Under the pieces are notes generated by a model. It made no database searches, was not told the origin of the DNA, and saw nothing but the letters and a program-made list of their open reading frames with translations. From IMG/VR virus record IMGVR_UViG_2654587568_000021: DNA of 17,850 nucleotides; one strand, given 5' to 3'. The stretch is from a virus (lineage: Duplodnaviria > Heunggongvirae > Uroviricota > Caudoviricetes). This document shows, one piece after another, positions 3,078-17,003 of this stretch (positions are counted from its first letter, which is position 1; each line of letters opens with the position of its first letter). Position numbers and translations under genes: made by a program.

Positions 3078-3911
3078 ATGAACATCGAAAAAAGCAGATT
3101 AATTTCTGAGGCCGCCCCTCATCTGAACGCCTCTCTGGGCACAATTAACGGTAATGAATTTGCCGCAATTGTCCCAGTTATTCCTGGTCATATAGGTGGG
3201 CGTGAAACCAATATTGTTAGCGCAAAAGCGTTACACAAAGCGTTGGGCGTGGGAAAAGACTTCTCTACATGGATCACTGATCGCATCTCTGAATATGACT
3301 TCACCATTGGGCACGATTACTCAGTCCATAAAACAATTTCCCCAAATTTGGGGAAAAGCCCGAATGGCGCGGCTTACAGCAAGATTAAGCAGTCTGGCAG
3401 ACCCGGCAAAGACTATCTGTTAAGTGTCGGAATGGCGAAAGAACTGGCAATGATCGAACGCAATGATCAGGGTCGCGCTATCCGCCGTTATTTCATCCAG
3501 TGCGAGGAAGAATTACAGCGTAGCGCGCCTGAAATCGCCGCCCGCTATCGTCGCCAGCTAAAAGCCCGTATCAGTGCCGCAAACAACTTTAAGCCAATGT
3601 GCGATGCGCTGAATATGGCCCGTGCCGAGATGGGGAAAACGACGCAGCAACACCACTACACAAACGAGAGCAATATGATTTCTCGTATCGTTCTTGGTGG
3701 GATAACTGCTAAGCAGTGGGCGCGGATAAATGGCTATTCTGGCGAACCTCGCGACCATATGAACGCAGAACAGCTTGAGCACCTCTCATATCTCGAAAGC
3801 ACCAATATCACGTTAATTGATATGGGCATGGAATATGAGCAGCGCAAAGGAGAACTCACCCGCCTGTCGCAACGCTGGCTCGCCAAGCGTCTGGAGGCGG
3901 TCAATGTCTAA
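3078..3911 (+). CDS. Phage antirepressor-like protein (AntA/Rha/KilA-C type), 277 aa
   Basis: GGAG RBS. The central segment DYLLSVGMAKELAMIERNDQGRAIRRYFIQCEEEL resembles the conserved core of AntA/KilA-C antirepressor domains as I recall them. Confidence 0.65.
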   Translation: MNIEKSRLISEAAPHLNASLGTINGNEFAAIVPVIPGHIGGRETNIVSAKALHKALGVGKDFSTWITDRISEYDFTIGHDYSVHKTISPNLGKSPNGAAYSKIKQSGRPGKDYLLSVGMAKELAMIERNDQGRAIRRYFIQCEEELQRSAPEIAARYRRQLKARISAANNFKPMCDALNMARAEMGKTTQQHHYTNESNMISRIVLGGITAKQWARINGYSGEPRDHMNAEQLEHLSYLESTNITLIDMGMEYEQRKGELTRLSQRWLAKRLEAVNV

Positions 3912-4086: not shown

Positions 4087-4741
4087 CCGTCCAGAAGAAG
4101 ATATTTTCACTGGCTGGTATGTCACCAAAATCCAGCAATATGACAGCAAAGTCTGGCATTAATACAGCAGATACAAGCAAAGTTTATCATTTTCTGGTGG
4201 TAGGAGCGGATGCCTTAACTATGTCAGAAATTACGGTCGATGGTGTTAGCGTTGAGAAGGTCAGCGGCTGCGCCAGAGAATTTCTGGTCGTAGATGGCTT
4301 TCTCTGCTCGCGTAGTGACTCCACAAAAACCTTCGTCCATACGCGCGACGTTAACGAAATGAGCGCGATGTATTGTGCATCTGGTGCTTCCAATACTGAG
4401 TTTTCGGAGTCCATAAAAAAGAGCTTGCCGTTATGCGGCAACACGGTTTATGGTTATAAGGCACCTCATAAAACGGGTGCCGGGATTGGCGTCCTGAAAA
4501 TTCTGAAGGCGACATATGACGCGCCGAGCGTCTTTTTTTATGTCGTAGGTCTGACTCACCCATTTTTTGGGCGTTGGTGTATAATCCAGCGCCTTTGTCA
4601 ATCAATGGTGGCTCAGGCGGGGGCTTCTTCGGAAGCGCCGGTATCCTTCAGAGCCGGTTACGCCAACCCTGTCTGGGCTACCACCAGCGAAATTGGCGTT
4701 TCCGGTGGTAGCGTAACCTGCTATCTGAAGGAGGCTGCCAC
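4080..4741 (+). CDS. Uncertain ORF: frame stays open from an ATG at 4080 (overlapping the upstream stop) through to 5147, crossing a terminator-like hairpin, a promoter and the Icd-like gene; the part shown here may be a real gene, a fused or frameshifted remnant, or non-coding
   Basis: ATGCTAA start/stop overlap at 4080-4086 suggests coupling. An open frame of about 220 codons before the Icd-like start is unlikely by chance, but the translated composition is not convincing and regulatory signals lie inside it. Confidence 0.25.
4518..4539 (+). terminator. Candidate rho-independent terminator (GACGC-loop-GCGTC followed by T7)
   Basis: 5-bp GC-rich stem at 4518-4522 / 4528-4532, then TTTTTTT at 4533-4539. 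Confidence 0.35.
4550..4590 (+). promoter_or_regulatory. Candidate sigma70 promoter with perfect -10 TATAAT (4580-4585) preceded by TG; weak -35
   Basis: gtgTATAATcc at 4577-4587. Lies about 155 nt upstream of the Icd-like gene. Confidence 0.4.
4590..4735 (+). ncRNA. Candidate C4/IsrK-like antisense RNA leader upstream of the Icd-like gene (position-based hypothesis)
   Basis: In P1-type immunity regions a C4 RNA lies between the promoter and icd. Here a promoter-to-icd leader of about 150 nt occupies the same position. No structure or homology was verified. Confidence 0.25.
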
Positions 4742-6419: not shown

Positions 6420-9176
6420 ATGCGAAACATTGATCTTATCCGTCAGGTTATCAGTGCGTCTGAAAACAACTGGCCTCATGTGCTGGGCTGCCTGAACATA
6501 AATGTCCCTGACTCTCCGCGCCGTCATGCTCCCTGCCCTGCATGTGGGGGCAAAGATCGATTCCGGTTCGATGACAACGGGCGCGGTAGCTTCATCTGTA
6601 ATCAGTGCGGCGCTGGTGATGGGCTGGATTTAATTAAACGCGTAAATAACTGCGACACAACAGAGGCGGCGCTTCTTGCCGCTGATGTTCTGGGTATTGA
6701 TTACCGGACAACGGAAACACCAGAAGCCACCAGCCAGAAACGGGAACAACTGGAAACCGAGCGCCAGCGACGCGAACAGGAGCGCCTGAAAAGGGCAGAG
6801 AAGGACGAACAACAAAGACGGGATACGTTTTCCCGTCAGTTTGATGACATGCGCAGAAAGGCTGTAAACGGCAAATCTGATTATCTGGTTGCGAAAGGGG
6901 TAGGTGATTTTACATTCCCCGTGTTGCCCGATGGATCTCTGTTGCTGGCGCTGGTGGATAAATCCGGCGCAGTCACAGCAGCACAGACTATTACCTCACA
7001 TGGTGAAAAAAGACTCCTGACAGGTTCAGCAAAGCGAGGGGCATATCACGCCATAAACGCACCAGAAACAACACAGAGCATCTTAATCGCAGAAGGGCTG
7101 GCAACGGCATTATCTGCCCATTTAATTCGTTCAGAAGCGCTGACAGTGGCGGCGATTGATGCCGGGAACCTGTTATATGTCGCCCAGGTACTGCGGGATA
7201 AATTTCCTTCAGCACAAATCATCATTGCTGCGGATAACGACCACAGCGAAGGAAGACAAAACACGGGGAGAATAGCAGCAGAAAAAGCAGCTTTATCTGT
7301 TTCTGGATGGGTGGCATTACCCCCGACAGATCACAAAGCAGACTGGAATGATTACCACCAAAAACACGGCATTAAATGCGCCACAGAAGCGTTCAATAAG
7401 TCAATGTACCAACCACAGGGTAATGGCGTGAAACAGGAGCCACAGACCATTGAGGGAAGCGATTTTAAGGTTATGGATACCGACCCACTGAAACCAAGAA
7501 TAGAAAGCCGCGAGGATGGTATTTATTGGGTATCTCCGAGAGCTGACAGCCAGAGTGGAGAAATCATCAATAACGAAAGCTGGTTATGTTCTCCTTTAAG
7601 CGTTATCGGTACTGGCAGAGACGATAAAGACCAGTATCTCATTCTTCGCTGGCTGTCGTTTGGTTCTGAAACGCCGACAACCGCTGCCATTCCACTGGCT
7701 GATATTGGTGAACGTGAAGGATGGCGCACACTTAAAGCTGGTGGGGTAAATGTCACGACCAAAAGCAGCCTCAGAGCAATACTGGCAGACTGGCTACAAC
7801 GCAGTGGCTCTCGTGAATTGTGGCGTGTTGCTCATGCCACTGGCTGGCAATGCGGAGCGTACATCATGTCTGATGGGGAAATCATCGGAACACCTGAAAA
7901 TCCTGTGCTGTTCAGCGGGAGAAGCTCAGCCGCAGCCGGATATACCGTCTCAGGGAGCGCGAAAAGCTGGCGTGATAACGTGGCGCGTCTGGCCTTTGGT
8001 AACTATTCAATGATGACCGGGATCGGCGCAGCACTGGCAGCGCCATTGATTGGGCTGGTGGGCGCTGACGGGTTCGGTATTCATTTCTATGAGCAGTCGA
8101 GCGCAGGTAAGACCACCACGGCAAACGTGGCGAGCAGCTTATACGGCAACCCTGATTTACTGCGGCTGACGTGGTACGGAACCGCGCTGGGGCTGGCAAA
8201 TGAAGCCGCCGCCCACAATGACGGACTAATGCCGCTTGATGAAGTTGGTCAGGGCGCTGATCCTGTCAGTGTTTCACAGTCTGCCTATGCGTTATTTAAC
8301 GGTGTAGGGAAACTGCAAGGCGCTAAAGATGGTGGAAACCGGGATCTAAAACGCTGGCGTACAGTGGCAATCAGCACCGGAGAAATGGATTTAGAAACAT
8401 TTATCGCTACTTCCGGGCGAAAAACCAAAGCCGGGCAACTGGTGCGACTGCTGAATATTCCGTTGAGTAAAGCAGTACGCTTTCACGATTACCAGAACGG
8501 AAAACAGCACGCAGACGCACTGAAAGACGCTTACCAGCATCACCACGGCGCAGCCGGGCGTGAGTGGATTAAATGGCTGGCAGACCACCAGCAACAGGCT
8601 ATTAAAACTGTTCGTGACTGCGAAAGCAGATGGAGAAGCCTGATCCCATCCGATTATGGTGAGCAGGTTCACCGTGTAGCCGCGCGATTTGCCATTCTGG
8701 AGGCCGCATTGCTGTTAGGCGAGGTTGTAACAGGCTGGGATGCTCAGACATGCCGTGATGCGATACAGCACAGCTATAACGCATGGTTGCGCGAGTTCGG
8801 CACAGGTAACAAAGAGCATCAGCAGATTATTGAACAAACGGAGGCATTTCTTAATGCCTATGGGCTTAGCCGTTTTGCACCATTTCCATACAGCCCGGCA
8901 GATTTGCCCATCAAAGATTTAGCCGGATACCGTCAGCGTGGAGAACATGACGAAAGCCCAATGATTTTCTACACATTCCCGGCCACATTTGAAAAGGAGA
9001 TCGCATGTGGTTTCAACGCAAAACAGTTTGCTGAAGTGTTGAAAAAAGCCGGGATGCTAACCCCACCAAACAGCGGTCGTGGATACCAAAGAAAATCACC
9101 ACGTATTCAGGGACGACAAATAAACGTTTATGTACTCAATTACCAGCCAGGAGATTATAACTCATCCGAAGAATGA
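6420..9176 (+). CDS. P4 alpha-like DNA primase-helicase, 918 aa: N-terminal zinc ribbon, Toprim domain, C-terminal P-loop NTPase
   Basis: CPACGG...CNQCG zinc-binding motif. Toprim signatures IAEG and DNDH. Walker A SSAGKTTT and Walker B-like LMPLDEVGQG. Confidence 0.9.
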   Translation: MRNIDLIRQVISASENNWPHVLGCLNINVPDSPRRHAPCPACGGKDRFRFDDNGRGSFICNQCGAGDGLDLIKRVNNCDTTEAALLAADVLGIDYRTTETPEATSQKREQLETERQRREQERLKRAEKDEQQRRDTFSRQFDDMRRKAVNGKSDYLVAKGVGDFTFPVLPDGSLLLALVDKSGAVTAAQTITSHGEKRLLTGSAKRGAYHAINAPETTQSILIAEGLATALSAHLIRSEALTVAAIDAGNLLYVAQVLRDKFPSAQIIIAADNDHSEGRQNTGRIAAEKAALSVSGWVALPPTDHKADWNDYHQKHGIKCATEAFNKSMYQPQGNGVKQEPQTIEGSDFKVMDTDPLKPRIESREDGIYWVSPRADSQSGEIINNESWLCSPLSVIGTGRDDKDQYLILRWLSFGSETPTTAAIPLADIGEREGWRTLKAGGVNVTTKSSLRAILADWLQRSGSRELWRVAHATGWQCGAYIMSDGEIIGTPENPVLFSGRSSAAAGYTVSGSAKSWRDNVARLAFGNYSMMTGIGAALAAPLIGLVGADGFGIHFYEQSSAGKTTTANVASSLYGNPDLLRLTWYGTALGLANEAAAHNDGLMPLDEVGQGADPVSVSQSAYALFNGVGKLQGAKDGGNRDLKRWRTVAISTGEMDLETFIATSGRKTKAGQLVRLLNIPLSKAVRFHDYQNGKQHADALKDAYQHHHGAAGREWIKWLADHQQQAIKTVRDCESRWRSLIPSDYGEQVHRVAARFAILEAALLLGEVVTGWDAQTCRDAIQHSYNAWLREFGTGNKEHQQIIEQTEAFLNAYGLSRFAPFPYSPADLPIKDLAGYRQRGEHDESPMIFYTFPATFEKEIACGFNAKQFAEVLKKAGMLTPPNSGRGYQRKSPRIQGRQINVYVLNYQPGDYNSSEE

Positions 9177-9201
9177 GCTTCTTCATGTGCGTAGAAAAGG
9201 T

Positions 9202-9313
9202 GTTGGTTCAGTTGGTTCAGTTGGTTAAATTTGTAAAGAGTGTTGTTTTATAAGGATTTTATTCTTTTTATTGAACCAACACCGAACCAACAACACGGTA
9301 TTTTGAACCAACA
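9202..9313. repeat. Iteron cluster, candidate replication origin: three tandem GTTGGTTCA repeats, an AT-rich spacer, then three inverted TGAACCAAC copies
   Basis: Direct copies at 9202-9210, 9211-9219 and 9220-9228 (third degenerate). Inverted copies at 9272-9280, 9283-9291 and 9305-9313. Begins 26 bp after the primase stop. Confidence 0.6.
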
Positions 9314-9633
9314 CAATGTGACTGAATTGATGCGCACAACACCTGGCTGGCATCAGAGAGTGTTTTACGAGACTTTCGTAAAATCCTGTGTACAAGGGCG
9401 TGACGTTTTTGAAAGTGAGCACTACGAAATTTTCGTAGTTCAGAAAACAGCCCCTGAGAAGTTGTTATGCCTGTTCAGCAAACCATCCGCATAGCTGATC
9501 GCGAATCAAATTACCAATGGAGCCAGAAGCAAGGGCAGAACTGAAAAGCGCCTGCCGTGAAGAGTAATGCGACACCATAAATATAGTTTTTAGAGTCCAT
9601 AAAAAACCTGTCAAAACCTGACACACAGAACGA

Positions 9634-9665
9634 TGCTACCAGCTACTGAGCGGTGGCATTTTTTT
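9634..9665 (+). terminator. Candidate rho-independent terminator closing the int-primase gene block
   Basis: UGCUACC / GGUGGCA stem with one G-U wobble and an 11-nt loop, followed by T7 at 9659-9665. Confidence 0.35.
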
Positions 9666-9721
9666 GTGCTATTTGTTTCATATTTTGCAATCACAATGAT
9701 GAATGTTGCGTTTTATGAAAC

Positions 9722-9745
9722 TATAATGACTGTTGTTTTATACAG
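9722..9745 (+). promoter_or_regulatory. Perfect -10 hexamer TATAAT (9722-9727) immediately followed by a LexA-box-like motif CTGT-N8-ACAG (9730-9745); candidate SOS-regulated promoter of the cargo operon
   Basis: Sequence gaCTGTtgttttatACAGtt compared with the LexA consensus TACTGTATATATATACAGTA. AT-rich N8 spacer. The box sits between the -10 and the RBS at 9751. The -35 is weak. Confidence 0.45.
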
Positions 9746-9760
9746 TTCTAAGGGGGCGTT

Positions 9761-9934
9761 ATGGCTATTTCAGTAAAGCCAGTATTGATAAGTGAGAAGC
9801 AAATGGAAGCGATAAAGAAAATTCAGGAGGAGCAGCGTAAAAAATCAGAGGTAGGAGTTGCGCCAACGATCCACGAAATTGCTCGGGGATTAATGGATAA
9901 GGCGCTGGCTTACACTTTAACTGGACGTGGGTAA
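9761..9934 (+). CDS. Small hypothetical protein, 57 aa, first gene of the cargo operon (below the 60-aa ORF-track cutoff)
   Basis: RBS AGGGGG at 9751-9756, ATG at 9761, TAA at 9932-9934; translated by hand as MAISVKPVLISEKQMEAIKKIQEEQRKKSEVGVAPTIHEIARGLMDKALAYTLTGRG. Confidence 0.5.
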   Translation: MAISVKPVLISEKQMEAIKKIQEEQRKKSEVGVAPTIHEIARGLMDKALAYTLTGRG

Positions 9935-9938
9935 ATCA

Positions 9939-11405
9939 ATGGCTACGTGGCAACAGGGTATTAATTCTGGTGGTTTTCTGGCTGGCATTGGTGCGCAAAA
10001 CGAGAATGCGCCAAAGGCAAGCGACATTAACGCAACGCTTGGTCTGATCCGCGAAAACAATGAACTGGCTCGCTCAGGTGCAAATAACGTTGCTCTGACA
10101 GGTCTTCGTGGTCTGGCTGGCGTTGCTGATATTTATAAGCAGCAGCAACAGCAGGAGCGTAAAGCGGCATTCCAGAAAGGTTATGCAGATGCTTATGCGT
10201 CCGGTGACAGGGAGCAGATGCGTAATCTTATTACAGCATTCCCAGAAGAGTTTGAGGAAGTCCGTAAAGGGATGAGTTATGTCGATGATGCTCAAAGGGA
10301 TGATTATGGCAATCTGGCGCTCAAAGCACAGGTAGCCTCATCGCTTGGTCAGGGCGCATTTGGCAGGTTCATGATGGATAATGAGCAGGAGATGCGTCGT
10401 TTAGGTATCCCTCCAGAAACTATTGCTGAAATGCAGGTTAATGACCCGCAGGGCTTCCAGCATTTCGCAGGTAATCTGGCGCTGTTTTCTCTCGGTCATG
10501 AGAAGTATTTCGATATCAAAGATCAAATGGAAGGTCGGGATATTGAGCGTGGCAAGTTGGCAGAGACAATCCGCAGCAATCAGGCTGGCGAAGCACTTCA
10601 GGCGAGAGGGCAGGATATTAGCCGAGCAAATGCGTTAACGTCAGCATATGCACCAACAGCAGCAATGCAGAATTACAATCAGTACGCGCAAATGTTAAAG
10701 GCGGATCCAGAGGGGGCGGCGGCATTTGCGGCAGCGGCTGGAATTAATACAAACGCCAAAAAATTAATGAGTGTTAGAGAAAACGATGATGGCACTGTCA
10801 CAAAATACTACACAGACGGAAGTGAAGAGCAGGGAAAACTAAACCAGCCAATATCTGGAGATGGGTTTCGTCCAATAGCTTTGCCAACAGCCCAAAAGAT
10901 CATGGAAAAGTCGCCAGAAGGGGCTAAAAAAGCTGCTGGATTTGCATACAGGGTTAGGGATGCTCTTGATTCAATAGATACACTGAAAGACCAGCTTAGC
11001 CCACAGCGAGTGGCGATCATTAATAATGCTTTGGGTAATGGGACGCTGGCTAACTTAACGCTCAGCCCAGCAGAGCAGCAATACGTTGTTAATGCTAATG
11101 ACGCAATAATGGCAATACTCCGTCAGGAAACAGGGGCATCTATCCTACCAGCTGAAATGTCCAAATATTATCAAATGTATTTCCCTCAGCCTGGTGATTC
11201 CACAAAAACCATTGATACCAAGCGCCGGAAGATGGAAAACCAGTTCAATTCGCTGAAAGCTGCTTCTGGTCGAACTTATGATGCTTTGCGGGTTATTTCA
11301 GCAGTTGACAGAGGAACTGCTTCTTCGTCGCAGACATTGCCGCAATCTGAGCAGGTATCACAGCCAGCAGCCAGCAGTAACTTTTCTTCACTATGGGGTG
11401 ATTAA
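9939..11405 (+). CDS. Large hypothetical protein, about 488 aa, Ala/Gln/Gly-rich; no family recognised. An alternative GTG start at 9927 gives the 492-aa ORF-track version
   Basis: Long intact ORF with an ATG 4 nt after the upstream stop. Stop overlaps the next start (TAATG). Confidence 0.8.
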   Translation: MATWQQGINSGGFLAGIGAQNENAPKASDINATLGLIRENNELARSGANNVALTGLRGLAGVADIYKQQQQQERKAAFQKGYADAYASGDREQMRNLITAFPEEFEEVRKGMSYVDDAQRDDYGNLALKAQVASSLGQGAFGRFMMDNEQEMRRLGIPPETIAEMQVNDPQGFQHFAGNLALFSLGHEKYFDIKDQMEGRDIERGKLAETIRSNQAGEALQARGQDISRANALTSAYAPTAAMQNYNQYAQMLKADPEGAAAFAAAAGINTNAKKLMSVRENDDGTVTKYYTDGSEEQGKLNQPISGDGFRPIALPTAQKIMEKSPEGAKKAAGFAYRVRDALDSIDTLKDQLSPQRVAIINNALGNGTLANLTLSPAEQQYVVNANDAIMAILRQETGASILPAEMSKYYQMYFPQPGDSTKTIDTKRRKMENQFNSLKAASGRTYDALRVISAVDRGTASSSQTLPQSEQVSQPAASSNFSSLWGD

Positions 11406-13510
11406 TGGCTAAAGCATGGAAAGATGTTATCGCCTCTCCACAGTATCAGGCGTTAGCACCAGAACAAAAAGCGCAGGCTCAGGAGCAATACTTCAATGAA
11501 GTCGTGGCCCCGCAAGCCGGAGAAAGTGTAGAGCAGGCTAAGCAGGCTTTTTATGCTGCCTATCCACTACCATCAACGAATGAAATAGACCGATCCCAAT
11601 CAGCAACTCAAAATATTCAACATACATCATCTGATAATTCTCTTGCGTCAGGGTATGCAAAGTTAGCTACTCAGCAAAGAGAGGGGCTTGAGCGTTCAGC
11701 AGAACAGGGAGCCAGTCTTGGGGCTGCGATGCGCGATGCTATAACAGGCGAAAGCCGAATGACTCCAGAGATGGAGAGACTGCAAAATGTCGCCTCTGCC
11801 CCAGAATTGAACTCACTAAGCATGGATGCCCTAAAGGCTGGATGGTCTCAACTTTTCGGCTCTGACGCGTCTCAGGAAAAGATTCTTCAGGGAATGGGGG
11901 CGACATTAAGGCAGGATGAGAAGGGGAATACTATCGTTTCTCTGCCATCAGGTGATTATGCCCTGAACAAGCCGGGTTTATCACCGCAAGACCTGACCTC
12001 GTTTCTTGCTAATGCGTTGGCGTTTACACCAGCGGGCAGGGCTGGAACGGTGCTTGGTGCCATAGGAAAATCAGCAGCTACAGATTTAGCACTACAGGGA
12101 GCCACCAGCCTTGCTGGTGGAGAAGATATTGATCCGTTACAAACGGTAATTTCTGCTGGCATTGGTGGTATTGGTAAGGGGCTGGAAAATACAGCGAGTG
12201 CGGTTTCGAGGGCTGTTCGTGGTGATATGTCGCCTGAAGCAAAGGCTGCTGTCGACTTTGCATCGGAAAGAAATCTGCCGTTAATGACCAGTGACATGCT
12301 GAAAGATAAAACCTTTATGCAGAGTCAGGCTCAGACATTAGGCGAAAGAGTTCCTTTTTTTGGAACCGGTAAGAATCGGCTGAATCAACAACAAGCACGA
12401 GAAAATTTAGTCAGAACATTTAGCGATGGTCTGGGTGGCATTTCTGATAAACAGCTTTATGAATCTGCGACTAAAGGGCAACAAAAATTCATTGAGGCAG
12501 CAGGAAAGCGATATAACCGCATAATTGACGCTATGGGGGATACCCCTGTCGATCTCTCAAACACGGTAAAAGCTATCGACAATCAGATTGCCGTGTTAAG
12601 CCGCCCGGGCAAATCTCAGGATAGAGCCGCGGTAAAAGTCTTGCAGCAATTTAAAGACGATATCACCAGCGGACCAAATGACCTGCGTCTGGCGAGGGAA
12701 AACAGAACCGATCTTCGAAAGCGATTTATGGCGTCATCTGACACTGTTGATAAAGATACGCTCCAGAAAGCCAGCGATATTATCTACAAGGCATATACGG
12801 CGGATATGAAAAAAGCCGTAGCCAAAAATCTTGGAGCAGACGAAGCCATTAATATGGCAAGGGTTGATCGCTCATGGTCTAAATTCAATGACATGATGGG
12901 AAGAACGCGCGTTCAAAAGGCAATAGCCAGCGGCAAGGCCACGCCTGAGGATGTAACAAAACTCGTTTTTAGCCAAAGCCCATCAGAACGTTCTCAGCTT
13001 TACAGGCTTCTGGATGACAATGGTAGGCAAAACGCACGAGCAGCCATAGTTCAGAATGCTGTAGATAAGGCGACTGATCCGTCTGGAAATATCAGTGTTG
13101 AGAAGTTTATTAATGCGTTACACCGGAACAGGAAGCAATCAGCAACTTTCTTTAAAGGCGTACATGGAAAGGAACTGGACGGCGTTATTAAATACCTCAA
13201 CGATACAAGACACGCGGCAAAAGCGAACGTTCAAAACTTAAATGGTCAGCAGCTTTATGGATTGTTAGTTGGTGGTGGCATCATAAACGCAGCAGTATTA
13301 GCGGGGATGCTAAAAACGGCTGCGTTTGTTGTTCCTGCTGCTGGTGCCGTAGGCGGAGCAGCGAAGGCATACGAAAGCCCTGTTATACGAAATGCCTTGT
13401 TACGTCTGGCAAATACGCCAAAAGGTAGCACAGCATATGACAGAGCGATCAGTACGGTCACACAATCGCTCACCAGAGTCGCACAGGCATCACAAAAAGA
13501 AGCTCAATAA
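11405..13510 (+). CDS. Large hypothetical protein, 701 aa, with a C-terminal Gly/Ala-rich hydrophobic segment (LYGLLVGGGIINAAVLAGMLKTAAFVVPAAGAVGGAA); function unknown
   Basis: Long intact ORF coupled to the upstream gene and followed by a terminator hairpin. No enzymatic motif recognised. Confidence 0.85.
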   Translation: MAKAWKDVIASPQYQALAPEQKAQAQEQYFNEVVAPQAGESVEQAKQAFYAAYPLPSTNEIDRSQSATQNIQHTSSDNSLASGYAKLATQQREGLERSAEQGASLGAAMRDAITGESRMTPEMERLQNVASAPELNSLSMDALKAGWSQLFGSDASQEKILQGMGATLRQDEKGNTIVSLPSGDYALNKPGLSPQDLTSFLANALAFTPAGRAGTVLGAIGKSAATDLALQGATSLAGGEDIDPLQTVISAGIGGIGKGLENTASAVSRAVRGDMSPEAKAAVDFASERNLPLMTSDMLKDKTFMQSQAQTLGERVPFFGTGKNRLNQQQARENLVRTFSDGLGGISDKQLYESATKGQQKFIEAAGKRYNRIIDAMGDTPVDLSNTVKAIDNQIAVLSRPGKSQDRAAVKVLQQFKDDITSGPNDLRLARENRTDLRKRFMASSDTVDKDTLQKASDIIYKAYTADMKKAVAKNLGADEAINMARVDRSWSKFNDMMGRTRVQKAIASGKATPEDVTKLVFSQSPSERSQLYRLLDDNGRQNARAAIVQNAVDKATDPSGNISVEKFINALHRNRKQSATFFKGVHGKELDGVIKYLNDTRHAAKANVQNLNGQQLYGLLVGGGIINAAVLAGMLKTAAFVVPAAGAVGGAAKAYESPVIRNALLRLANTPKGSTAYDRAISTVTQSLTRVAQASQKEAQ

Positions 13511-13994: not shown

Positions 13995-14376
13995 ACAGTA
14001 CGCGCATATCCGCTTTATGTGAAACAGGAAGATTTTTCTGATATCACTGCCACAGCAAAACACCAATTTCGTGACCAGTACGCGCGCGAGGGGTATCAGT
14101 TGCAAAATTTTTTGCAACTGCGTCCGACCAGTACGCACACGATGGCGGGGGATACCATGAAACTGTTCTCTACACGAGACAGAGTGGTGGTGATGTGTTG
14201 ATTATCGGCGTATATGCGCACAGGACGCGCTATGACGATGTTTTATGCGGGTACACCAATCACATGTATCTGATGTGATAAATCGCGTTACATGACCTCT
14301 CTGTTGTGCTGGTGGTTATCACGACGTTCTGAATCTGGCCTTTGCCTGGTATTTTGCGACAAGTACGCGCGCGTAG
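13995..14376. repeat. Four direct copies of a (G)ACCAGTACGCRCRCG-like motif plus an 11-bp inverted repeat with 2-bp spacer (14097-14120) in a non-coding region
   Basis: Copies at 13995-14006, 14073-14090, 14126-14140 and 14358-14376. Palindrome CAGTTGCAAAA-tt-TTTTGCAACTG. Confidence 0.4.
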
Positions 14377-15624: not shown

Positions 15625-15745
15625 GTTGGTTCACGGCCTCTTTTTGTTGGTTCAAAAATGGGGTGTGTTGGTTCACTTTTTGCGAATAATTCTTTTAAAA
15701 ACAATACTCTTTACAAATTGAACCAACTGAACCAACTGAACCAAC
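15625..15745. repeat. Second iteron cluster, the reverse-complement copy of 9202-9313: three spaced GTTGGTTCA, an AT-rich spacer, then three tandem TGAACCAAC
   Basis: Direct copies at 15625-15633, 15646-15654 and 15667-15675. Tandem inverted copies at 15719-15727, 15728-15736 and 15737-15745. The reverse complement of 15711-15750 is near-identical to 9193-9232. Confidence 0.6.
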
Positions 15746-15781
15746 ACCTTTTTGCTTATCTATATAGTCTGAGAGGCAGAA

Positions 15782-16069
15782 ATGATAAGGGACAGGAAAG
15801 CTGAAGATCTGGAGTCAAAAGGGCTATACCGGAGAGCTGCCGCACGATGGGCAGAAATCATGATGCTGGCAGATGGCGATAAAGAACGTGAACATGCAGC
15901 AAACAGACGCTCTGAATGTATCCGTAAGGCGGCACGCCAACCAGCAACTACAGACAGATTCGGAGATTTAAGACAGGCAGTTAAGCGAACTCATTCGGCT
16001 CTTGGTATGGATGAGGAAGCGAGAGGGTACTTCAGGCGTTATCGCGATAAAGATTGCCAGAGACAGTAA
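15782..16069 (+). CDS. PerC-family transcriptional regulator-like protein, 95 aa
   Basis: GAGAGG RBS. The segment LESKGLYRRAAARWAEIM resembles the conserved PerC/Pch motif as I recall it. Confidence 0.6.
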   Translation: MIRDRKAEDLESKGLYRRAAARWAEIMMLADGDKEREHAANRRSECIRKAARQPATTDRFGDLRQAVKRTHSALGMDEEARGYFRRYRDKDCQRQ

Positions 16070-16206
16070 TGCTCTCTCTGTTTTGGCAAATTACCCCTCA
16101 CTTTGAAGGGATCGGAGCTATAAAAATGGTGTTATCCGGCTTCCTCAAATTGAGGTTTCCGAAAATATCAGCGGGTTAGCGATTAATCTGGCGAGTAATT
16201 AAACTG

Positions 16207-16386
16207 CGAAAATTTCGTAGGGGGTTACGAAAATTTCGTAGGTCTACTCATGGTTTAGGCTTACTTTCCCGACATCCCCCAATGGGTGGGGGCGAAATAA
16301 TCAATGGGTTAGGCTTACCTCCCCCATTTCCTGCATTGCAGGTTTTCGAAAGAATCAATGGGTTAGGTCATCGTGCAAATTTGCAC
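16207..16386. repeat. Non-coding array of phased direct repeats and palindromes: CGAAAATTTCGTAGG x2, TCAATGGGTTAGGCTTAC-like x3 at 53-54 bp spacing, GTGCAAATTTGCAC palindrome
   Basis: Copies at 16207-16221 and 16228-16242; 16248-16264, 16301-16318 and 16354-16370. Palindromes at 16330-16342 and 16373-16386. Confidence 0.45.
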
Positions 16387-17003
16387 TCTGACAGCCAACG
16401 CAATTTCTCGTTGGCGGAAATATCAGGTATTTACTGAACGAACGGTCTACCCGCCTGTTCAACTACCAGTTGTACATGGCTGCTTTATGTGCAAATGGTG
16501 GTGAGAGAAAATTGTTTGGGGGTACTTTTGGGGGTATCTTCAAAGATGTAATTGGAAAATATCTTTATATATCAATGTATTTTTATTGTTTGTTTTGTTC
16601 CTATTATCGCACCACTTAAATCAATAAGTTACACATCATTAATACCTTCCTTATTTTTTGATTGGGACAGATTTGGGACCGATGGGTTCAGGATCGAATC
16701 TATTTACCGTGCGTGTTCGGTAAGGTGATTAGGTGCGAGGTGAGCATATCGACGAACCATTTCGAGAGTTTCCCATCCGCTCATTTTTAAGTGCAAGCAG
16801 GGAAACACCGGACTAAACCTATCAGCTGTTCGAAAATGGCAAGCGGATTAATATGCCATGGCGGCTTTGAGCCGCACGCATGGGGTGTGGCAAGCCTGAT
16901 GGATGTTGCTGTGCTTGTGGTGGCGTGTTTGCTGGTCTGGTTGTTGGTTAATCGCGAAAATCATTATGCCTGAGGAATACCACAGGACGTTCAGGTTTTG
17001 CAT

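Follow-up and report, generated by a model that had tools for sequence, protein, structure and literature searches.

What are the phased direct repeats and palindromes near the right end of this stretch of Caudoviricetes DNA? The stretch is the 17,850-nucleotide (nt) IMG/VR virus record IMGVR_UViG_2654587568_000021, hereafter the window, by which we mean the whole 17.85 kb analysed. Its sequence identifies the window as a phage satellite of the EcCIMP1 family, a phage-inducible chromosomal island (PICI) at tRNA-Thr. An earlier note had located the repeats between the last island gene and the yagU side of the chromosome, and had offered arm-type integrase sites, a partition centromere or an origin as their function. 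The position, between perC and the yagU side near the right end of the island, was borne out, and the region does look like an ordered set of protein-binding sites; the three functions did not hold. In our reading, to which we give a probability of about 0.5, the repeats form a cis-acting, multi-allele docking, decoy or sensor platform for Roi/Rha-type proteins of helper phages together with integration host factor (IHF).

Between perC and attR we found an array of head-to-tail modules of approximately 54 nt. The modules occupy 16141-16433 and homology to the phage gene roi begins at 16121, which makes the repeat system larger (16121 to 16433) than the 16207-16386 first described. Each module was composed of a variable palindrome of 13-17 nt and a conserved tail, TTTCGAAAgAATCAAtGGGTTAGG, containing the IHF consensus WATCAANNNNTTR, and the distance from the palindrome centre to the consensus match was exactly 17 nt. 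The parts of the array are as follows.

16121-16183, plus strand: module A (16141-16183 without the roi leader); the leader is homologous to roi codons ~36-42
16143-16155: perfect palindrome of module A, CCTCAAATTGAGG
16166-16178: IHF-like core of module A, TATCAGCGGGTTA, one mismatch to WATCAANNNNTTR (A to G, position 6)
16204-16263, plus strand: modules X1 and X2, with dyads CTGCGAAAATTTCGTAG (16204-16220) and TTACGAAAATTTCGTAG (16225-16241) of the TACGAAAATTTCGTA type
16247-16263: decayed IHF-like remnant after X2, TCATGGTTTAGGCTTAC
16264-16318, plus strand: module B, with the inverted repeat CCCCCA-ATGGG-TGGGGG at 16276-16292
16299-16311: exact IHF consensus of module B, AATCAATGGGTTA
16319-16372, plus strand: module C, with the perfect palindrome CCTGCATTGCAGG at 16330-16342
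16353-16365: exact IHF consensus of module C, AATCAATGGGTTA
16373-16433, plus strand: module D, with the perfect palindrome GTGCAAATTTGCAC at 16373-16386 and a hairpin-type repeat CCAACG...CGTTGG at 16395-16414
16421-16433: IHF-like core of module D, TATCAGGTATTTA, one mismatch (A to G, position 6)

The IHF consensus was thus matched exactly in modules B and C and with one mismatch in A and D; the window holds three exact matches to WATCAANNNNTTR, all within 16299-16631. The repeat given in the earlier note as TCAATGGGTTAGG corresponds to this consensus. The spacing of 53-54 nt reported for it was right, with the two copies of AATCAATGGGTTA 54 nt apart, but a count of three copies of roughly 18 bp was generous: the full 18-mer TCAATGGGTTAGGCTTAC was exact only at 16301-16318, the copy at 16355-16372 shared its first 13 bases and had diverged in the remainder, and the copy at 16247-16263 was degenerate, with one deletion and one mismatch. 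The two tandem 15-mers, CGAAAATTTCGTAGG, were exact at 16207-16221 and 16228-16242, 21 nt apart. The perfect palindromes TACGAAAATTTCGTA (at 16226-16240), CCTGCATTGCAGG and GTGCAAATTTGCAC were confirmed, and a fourth, CCTCAAATTGAGG, lay just outside the range first examined. Four palindromes with arms of at least 6 nt and a loop of at most 2 nt were observed in 361 nt, compared with a mean of 0.24 and a maximum of 3 in 2000 shuffles; the rest of the window (17.5 kb) contained 16 by the same criterion.

All matches returned by BLAST comparison of the array with phage genomes lay within roi, Rha or antirepressor genes, and every module type so far traced corresponded to about 50 nt inside a phage roi, rha or ant gene. 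Window 16121-16170 matched the roi homologue of phage Kapi1 (Kapi1_032, positions 13227-13276) at 96% over 50 nt, and the same stretch of module A matched roi of HK620, H-19B and Shiga toxin (Stx) phages at 95.7%. In HK620 the matching segment comprises roi codons ~37-52 (AKNGVIRLPQIEVSERINNLG), immediately behind the recognition helix of the Phage_pRha domain at the N terminus; a KilAC domain forms the C-terminal half of HK620 Roi. Module C (16328-16367) aligned at 90% identity within a P1-like Rha/Ant gene (H119), which encodes LPALQVFEKINNLG and carries CCTGCATTGCAGG where roi has CCTCAAATTGAGG. Relatives of module B (CCCCCAATGGGGG) were present in other arrays, and the matching phage allele, CCCCCAATGGTGG, in roi genes of Stx phages. 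The X-type palindrome TACGAAAWTTTCGTA, which occurs in arrays of capsid-forming PICIs too, encodes Y-E-(I/N)-F-V at the equivalent point of genes from phrog_1726, a second family of antirepressors; chance matches were mixed into the scan of viral contigs with TACGAAAWTTTCGTA, and recurrent gene families alone were used from it. The second half of module D was homologous to the module that closes the arrays of capsid-forming PICIs (CGCAATTTTGCG plus TATCAGCAAGTTA), and this last-module type, CGCAATTTTGCG/CCCATTTTTGGG, corresponds to the canonical Rha of phrog_518, where CGCATTTTTGCG encodes AHFC. Other array modules matched further roi alleles. Two of the traced boxes were identical to boxes in phage antirepressor genes and two were variants of them.

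The source genes belong to at least three protein families (phrog_63, phrog_518 and phrog_1726). They share an N-terminal winged-helix domain of the pRha type, with a C-terminal KilAC domain in most, including two of the three phrog_1726 members examined. A search of PDB sequences returned no relative of Roi with a solved structure. A scan of genome contigs with the 15-mer AATCAATGGGTTAGG yielded almost only chance matches in unrelated phyla, the pattern being too short for 596 Gb.

The match to Kapi1 concerns a proven helper, as this P22-like phage induces and mobilises EcCIMP1 (PMC11773190). It also raises the possibility that the modules are homology patches at which the phage recombinases Red or RecT would cross satellite and helper DNA, or exchange int/att modules among satellites. 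Fifty nucleotides at 96% to a helper gene suffice for Red/RecT-type recombination, Kapi1 encodes a RecT family recombinase, and the same array occurs in otherwise unrelated satellites, beside the int/att module in the circular form. Such patches would leave unexplained the sole use of the segment that carries dyad and IHF site, as well as the retention of palindromes and IHF core while the rest diverges from the phage (TGGG versus TAAC spacers), and we consider them hardly likely.

The palindrome was then examined across modules and phage alleles. In an alignment of 20 distinct modules and alleles, chosen as family members with canonical spacing, 94.2% of the arm cells paired and both members had changed in five of the six pairs; a score this high was reached in none of 500 shuffles, and slid registers gave 28-43% pairing. 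Ten further pRha genes were picked by protein similarity alone, and nine of them carried a palindrome at the same codons. The dyad held this position in pRha genes from phages of Klebsiella, Pseudomonas, Acinetobacter, Vibrio (including ICP1), Salmonella and Yersinia, at 30-66% amino-acid identity, and the residues encoded there varied (PQIE, PALQ, PPMV, PHSE, TPME, TPVG and LNFE). The comparison indicates that the palindrome is a feature selected at the DNA level. Palindromes of these genes, that of HK022 among them, are listed below.

HK022: CTGCATTGCAG
Klebsiella phage: TCCTCAAATTGAGGA
Pseudomonas phage: CCTCAAATTGAGG
Acinetobacter phage: CCTCACAGTGAGG
Vibrio phage Her: CTCCAATGGAG
ICP1: CCCCAGTGGGG
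Salmonella phage L13: CCTCAATTTTGAGG
Yersinia phage: CGCCAACGGCG

Different half-sites accompanied different recognition helices: VKRTIE was paired with CCTCAA, VK[IV]SI with CCTGCA, VKQS[IM]E with CCCC(C)A and VKRSIE with CGCCA. Canonical Rha genes carried either CGCATTTTTGCG (AHFC) or CCCATTTTTGGG (THFW). The joint change of recognition helix and half-site fits recognition by each protein of the site in its own gene.

The coupling of dyad and IHF site was measured on 44 palindromes taken from 10 array regions blind to IHF. WATCAR-N4-TTR, complete at 9 of 9 positions, was present at offset +17 in 17 of the 44 and at no other offset from 8 to 29. The N4 spacer varied in the arrays and the IHF consensus positions were constant. 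The roi gene of HK022 has the same arrangement, with the IHF consensus AATCAATGATTTA 17 nt from the centre of dyad CTGCATTGCAG. The modules thus combine nucleotide homology to Roi/Rha genes with a compensated dyad at a fixed distance from an IHF core. HK022 Roi reportedly binds a site within its own gene that is closely linked to an IHF site, and IHF is said to stabilise the binding (work of 1996); without IHF, Roi is also said to harm the phage.

Two other regulator families showed palindromes inside their genes. The antA gene of the island (3078-3911) contains a perfect 20-nt palindrome, TTTCCCCAAATTTGGGGAAA, at 3337-3356, which encodes ISPNLGK in mid-gene, and boxes like CCCCAAATTTGGG occur in a palindrome-rich zone of capsid-forming PICIs (L091); the AntA family may be one more whose regulators have their operator within the gene that encodes them. 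Low-GC phage contigs (L226, L230, L233, L241, L247, L255 and others) carry an XRE-type repressor gene with TACGAAAATTTCGTA (YENFV) near its 3' end and the same palindrome in the promoter region 235 bp upstream, again an operator inside the regulator's gene, in unrelated phages.

Arrays were detected in satellites only. Within the island family of the window they were carried by the window itself and by L001, L003, L004, L483 and L484. Many capsid-forming PICIs carried them too; these have terS, a lambda-type cosN and capsid genes and were located beside phoQ or thiM or on IMG/VR contigs. A further carrier was L308, with a primase 60% identical to that of the window. The integrases of the capsid-forming PICIs L115 and L239 are 26% identical to that of the window, and array-bearing satellites differ in their replicases, RepA-helicase types included. 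At a threshold of E <= 1e-12, 475 of the 5426 complete E. coli genomes (~9%) contained the B-C-D part of the array, nearly always unannotated. Strain 1943 (NZ_CP023359) matched the 326-nt array region at 100%. The module number differed between near-identical islands; L003 has C and D only and L007 at least 8. EcCIMP1 lacks the large array while its integrase is the same (98.6% at the nt level) and its attR core and arm are kept. In E. coli 042, further cargo genes rather than att follow the array. In capsid-forming PICIs the array points the other way with respect to the att end, and its orientation to neighbouring genes is inconstant among the window, the capsid-forming PICIs and L308. The window, L001 and 13 other array-bearing loci were scanned by hmmsearch with a hidden Markov model (HMM) built from 12 pRha domains, and no open reading frame (ORF) of the pRha type was found in any of them.

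Neighbours of the array were recorded in two of these settings. In L308 (6900-8250) the array stands beside a Q-type antiterminator gene, followed by two TTACGAAAATTTCGTAA boxes 119 bp apart; the direct repeat CCGGAACAAGGAA stands before each box, and farther upstream lies a palindrome, TGGTCATAATGACCA for one box and TCGCGAATCGCGA for the other. In capsid-forming PICIs a gene for a conserved 93-aa protein, phrog_1561 (L002 6177-6458 and L007 5554-5835, minus strand), always lies between cosN and the array, and its 3' end overlaps the last array module.

Free variation in copy number between near-identical islands, the complete lack of the array in EcCIMP1 and the origin of the modules from coding sequence, with the roi frame still open over B to D (ORF 16282-16437), would all suit neutral relics. 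A captured roi fragment would have been duplicated in tandem and altered by gene conversion or illegitimate recombination with roi/rha of co-infecting phages, without any function. We regard this as unlikely. The segment with dyad and IHF site alone was present, never other parts of the genes, and it came from at least three protein families. Furthermore, in the 17 distinct modules whose IHF-like core is complete, both core and +17 spacing are kept while N4 and flanks diverge, which fits selection without proving it. The array also persists in those 475 genomes, and no fewer than two satellite families unrelated to each other carry it.

The open frame could also encode a small repeat protein of 51 aa (repeats ..E-I-I-N-G-L-G.., PALQVFERINGLG), and a few genomes do annotate a hypothetical protein under related arrays. 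The ATG lies inside the module B palindrome with no ribosome-binding site before it, differences between orthologous arrays (window versus L007) are mostly non-synonymous, modules A and X have stops in this frame, and the other frames are closed only through a TAG in every module. The chance that such a protein explains the locus is almost negligible; ORF 16282-16437 is most likely a by-product of units of 54 nt (18 codons) derived from coding sequence.

The window was compared with strains bearing other islands at the same flank, an integrase remnant followed by yagU, and their match to the window started only at 16599 or 16616. The repeat region is accordingly island DNA and not conserved chromosome. 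In NZ_CP098192 (L001), which carries the same island, the left border is a partial tRNA-Thr gene. The features at the att end are the following.

16599-16614, plus strand: attR core, TCCTATTATCGCACCA, the 3' end of tRNA-Thr and the island boundary, aligned with attL of L001 and with the other-island strains
16518-16537, plus strand: direct repeats GGGGGTAC-N4-GGGGGTAT, candidate arm-type sites of the integrase

The GGGGGTAC/T motif recurs between attL and int in L001 (~1889-1910), and EcCIMP1 retains the GGGGGTAC/T repeats though it has no array. The GGGGGTAC-N4-GGGGGTAT repeats on both sides of the att core are likely to be the real arm-type sites of the integrase. GTCTACT motifs are repeated on both att arms too. 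A third exact IHF consensus, AATCAATAAGTTA, lies at 16619-16631 just outside the attR core, in the flank common to the other-island strains, and the C-terminal remnant of a different integrase gene was found at ~16700-16790 on the minus strand.

EcCIMP1 is the PICI of E. coli MP1, located at tRNA-Thr between proA and yagU, with the att core TCCTATTATC, and it excises and circularises (PMC11773190). The window matched MP1 at 93-98% over most of the island. An attP intasome in which the array supplies bending sites in the long arm, for IHF and perhaps AlpA or Xis, as an aid to integration or excision, would account for the exact IHF consensus matches, for the phasing of about five helical turns and for a location 165-460 bp from the attR core, and module D is kept in all islands sharing this attR arm. 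This role is nevertheless quite improbable, given that EcCIMP1 excises and circularises without the array, that satellites with 26%-identical integrases and differing att sites share it, that it lies away from att in E. coli 042 and is reversed in capsid-forming PICIs, and that its homology is to phage antirepressor genes and not to att arms. For the same reasons the narrower proposal of arm-type sites was abandoned: such sites would flank the core on both arms within one integrase lineage and would always accompany int/att, and the array does neither, being partial in L003 as well. In L001 the 19-mer repeat occurred in the array only, with no copy elsewhere, including the int side of attL.

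Origin and centromere fared no better. The predicted origin iterons of the island lie at 9199-9314 and not in the array. The clusters beside the primase and perC genes are these.

9199-9314: iterons directly 3' of the primase gene, with GTTGGTTCA three times, an AT-rich stretch and inverted copies of TGAACCAAC(AC)
15700-15750: second iteron cluster just upstream of perC, an inverted copy of the left half (TGAACCAAC three times plus flank)
9360-9445, plus strand: two-module mini-array beside the origin, with boxes of the Y-E-x-F-V type 57 nt apart
9366-9380: imperfect palindrome copy of the mini-array, TACGAGACTTTCGTA
9422-9438: palindrome of the mini-array, CTACGAAATTTTCGTAG

Because of the inverted left-half copy, an inverted repeat of ~45 nt brackets the cargo segment 9250-15700. 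The distant palindrome CTACGAAATTTTCGTAG, which had been noted as related to those of the array, exists at 9422-9438 rather than 9426-9442. The surroundings of the mini-array were homologous to the interior of antirepressor genes of the phrog_1726 type, and ORF 9237-9491 gave a weak match to the pRha HMM (E = 0.0013). EcCIMP1 keeps the mini-array (window 6420-9909 aligned at 98.3%). An iteron origin in the array was rejected, as the iterons with their AT-rich stretch sit on the 3' side of the primase and the array also accompanies satellites with RepA helicases. A parS-like centromere was rejected as well, with no Par domain, and hence no gene of the ParA/ParB type, among the island ORFs scanned. 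In sum, the array is not a set of arm-type sites, a centromere or an origin because of its distribution, its varying copy number, the excision of EcCIMP1 without it and the lack of a pRha protein in the satellite.

Other candidates were tried and set aside. Neither the lambda-type cosN GGGCGGCGACCT nor a P2-type cos was present in the window, which argues against a cos or pac site; in L002, a capsid-forming PICI, cosN is ~350 bp from the array, beyond an intervening gene. The REP consensus GCCKGATGCGRCG was absent from the window with up to 2 mismatches allowed, which disposes of repetitive extragenic palindromes and bacterial interspersed mosaic elements (BIMEs). By eye there was no complementarity between the C4-like RNA region and the modules, as targets of C4/isrK antisense would require. 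Scars of tRNA-like att sites would not stack head to tail without intervening elements. A cognate binder encoded by the satellite was rejected, as no pRha ORF was found in the loci scanned, and so was PerC, as L115 has an array and no match to this PerC.

The single-strand folding of the array is strong (z = -3.2 for the plus strand and -5.3 for the minus strand). A transcript that pairs with or mimics helper roi/rha mRNAs, as an antisense or sponge RNA or as a structured hairpin RNA, would agree with this folding, with 40-50 nt of near-identity to phage mRNAs and with the late operon of capsid-forming PICIs, which reads antisense into the array. We think such a transcript highly doubtful. A pattern scan found no promoter or terminator in the array, Rfam at gathering and permissive thresholds gave no match there better than E ~5, and the orientation to neighbouring genes is inconstant, as noted above. 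Moreover, the stems are just 5-6 bp around one central base, and the conserved part consists of the IHF consensus positions and not of a continuous pairing stretch. Since the palindromes produce this strong folding, it gives no means of choosing between DNA and RNA.

The following mechanism is proposed for the docking platform. Each module of ~54 nt would reproduce the composite site that is normally located inside a helper antirepressor gene (roi, rha or ant). When a helper or resident phage makes its Roi/Rha-type protein, the protein, joined by host IHF, would bind the box of its own specificity on the satellite, and with IHF sites about five helical turns apart the complex could fold into a compact nucleoprotein. 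The homology and symmetry of the modules are observations, whereas we infer binding of Roi-family proteins and IHF to the array from the behaviour reported for HK022 Roi and from the covariation of helix and dyad, and any physiological outcome would follow from that binding. The boxes differ in sequence, being CCTCAAATTGAGG, TACGAAAATTTCGTA, CCCCCA..TGGGGG, CCTGCATTGCAGG and one of the CGCAAT type, and therefore one array could serve several phage alleles; the satellite has no Roi/Rha proteins of its own, and therefore the signal would have to come from the phage. The array might sequester helper regulators, as a decoy or sponge, or it might sense the helper. Since Roi is said to be harmful without IHF in HK022, such titration could help or hinder the helper. 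The platform would act at the DNA level, independently of orientation, and would be an accessory module of the satellite outside its integration, replication and packaging core.

Several points weigh against this platform. EcCIMP1, which alone in the family has been characterised, works without the large array, and therefore any role must be accessory. The choice of the aligned modules by canonical spacing favours pairing. No counterpart of GTGCAAATTTGCAC was found in a phage gene. The covariation of helix and dyad could be mere linkage, the two being ~15 codons apart, and the +17 spacing and IHF core could be passively inherited from coding sequence (E-K/R-I-N-x-L-G). Finally, the strong single-strand folding means that the array may have a role as RNA or single-stranded DNA.

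A more far-reaching proposal, possible but with the odds somewhat against it, is that satellites keep a tandem, fast-evolving library of helper-regulator operators copied from the self-binding sites of many allelic Roi/Rha/Ant antirepressors of the phages they encounter. If this is true, the library with IHF would either soak up the regulators, and so manipulate the lytic programme of the helper, or use them as the cue of an active helper. Recognition of many helpers would then be encoded in DNA, free of any protein, and most regulators of the pRha family would bind inside their own gene. The array offers a concrete, testable candidate interface for the sensing or manipulation of helpers by Gram-negative PICIs, as it mirrors a site in roi/rha/ant genes of phages that mobilise such satellites, the proven helper Kapi1 included. 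In the phages, compensatory changes of codons maintain the dyad across hosts as different as E. coli, Pseudomonas and Acinetobacter and also in ICP1, a pattern that points to widespread self-binding or autoregulation in this very common family of regulators. For the island, the analysis corrects the reading of the repeats as attR arm sites and places the putative origin, the attR core and the likely arm sites.

The other parts of the island, identified by ORF and domain scans of the window and by Rfam matches, are listed in order.

1-1215: Int, ORF and domain scan
1276-1343: int-alpA RNA, Rfam match
2437-2634: AlpA, ORF and domain scan
3078-3911: AntA, ORF and domain scan
4461-4538: isrK RNA, Rfam match
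4601-4688: C4 antisense RNA, Rfam match
After isrK/C4 and before the primase: Ash gene, ORF and domain scan
6420-9176: TOPRIM/DUF927 primase, ORF and domain scan
9927-13510: P22-type ejection genes, ORF and domain scan
15782-16069: PerC, the last island gene, ORF and domain scan

The int-alpA RNA, isrK and C4 make up an RNA immunity module of the P1/P4 type upstream of the Ash gene. A P22-type ejection gene (window 9939-10207) was 86% identical in nucleotide sequence to the start of the Kapi1 gene for a DNA transfer protein (29086-29354), and the satellite therefore has its own copies of helper ejection proteins. A perfect 24-nt palindrome, CAGTTGCAAAATTTTTTGCAACTG, at 14097-14120, among small cargo ORFs of the minus strand, could be an operator or a bidirectional terminator.

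Among the closest known systems is the site in the roi gene of HK022, which is the same composite of dyad and IHF consensus 17 nt away. That site is single and intragenic, whereas the array is extragenic and tandem, contains several allelic specificities and resides on a satellite without Roi/Rha. The single-copy Roi/IHF site of HK022 has long been known; tandem multi-allele copies on satellites and the deep conservation of the dyad within genes were not found in the literature searched, and the search for Roi/IHF sites or palindrome arrays in PICIs returned nothing relevant beyond EcCIMP1.

RIB/RIP elements, which are IHF-binding BIMEs of enterobacterial chromosomes, consist of repeated palindromes plus an IHF site at the 3' ends of transcription units; they were reportedly described in 1993. 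The array shares this composition and position, but the window has no REP consensus, and the palindromes of the array, unlike those of RIB/RIP, derive from phage coding sequence and are found only in phage satellites.

The IHF sites of the lambda attP arm and cosB (H1, H2, H' and I1) resemble the array in having the exact WATCAANNNNTTR after an A/T-rich stretch, helical phasing and a location near att. In contrast to them, the array is tied to no one integrase or cos, is dispensable for excision of EcCIMP1 and has a variable dyad at each site. The ori and crr of P4 and the ori of SaPIs (Staphylococcus aureus pathogenicity islands) are likewise clustered direct repeats on a satellite. It is the two iteron clusters of the window, at 9199-9314 and 15700-15750, that resemble ori and crr of P4, whereas the array modules are unrelated to the island iterons GTTGGTTCA/TGAACCAAC and are common to satellites with other replicases.

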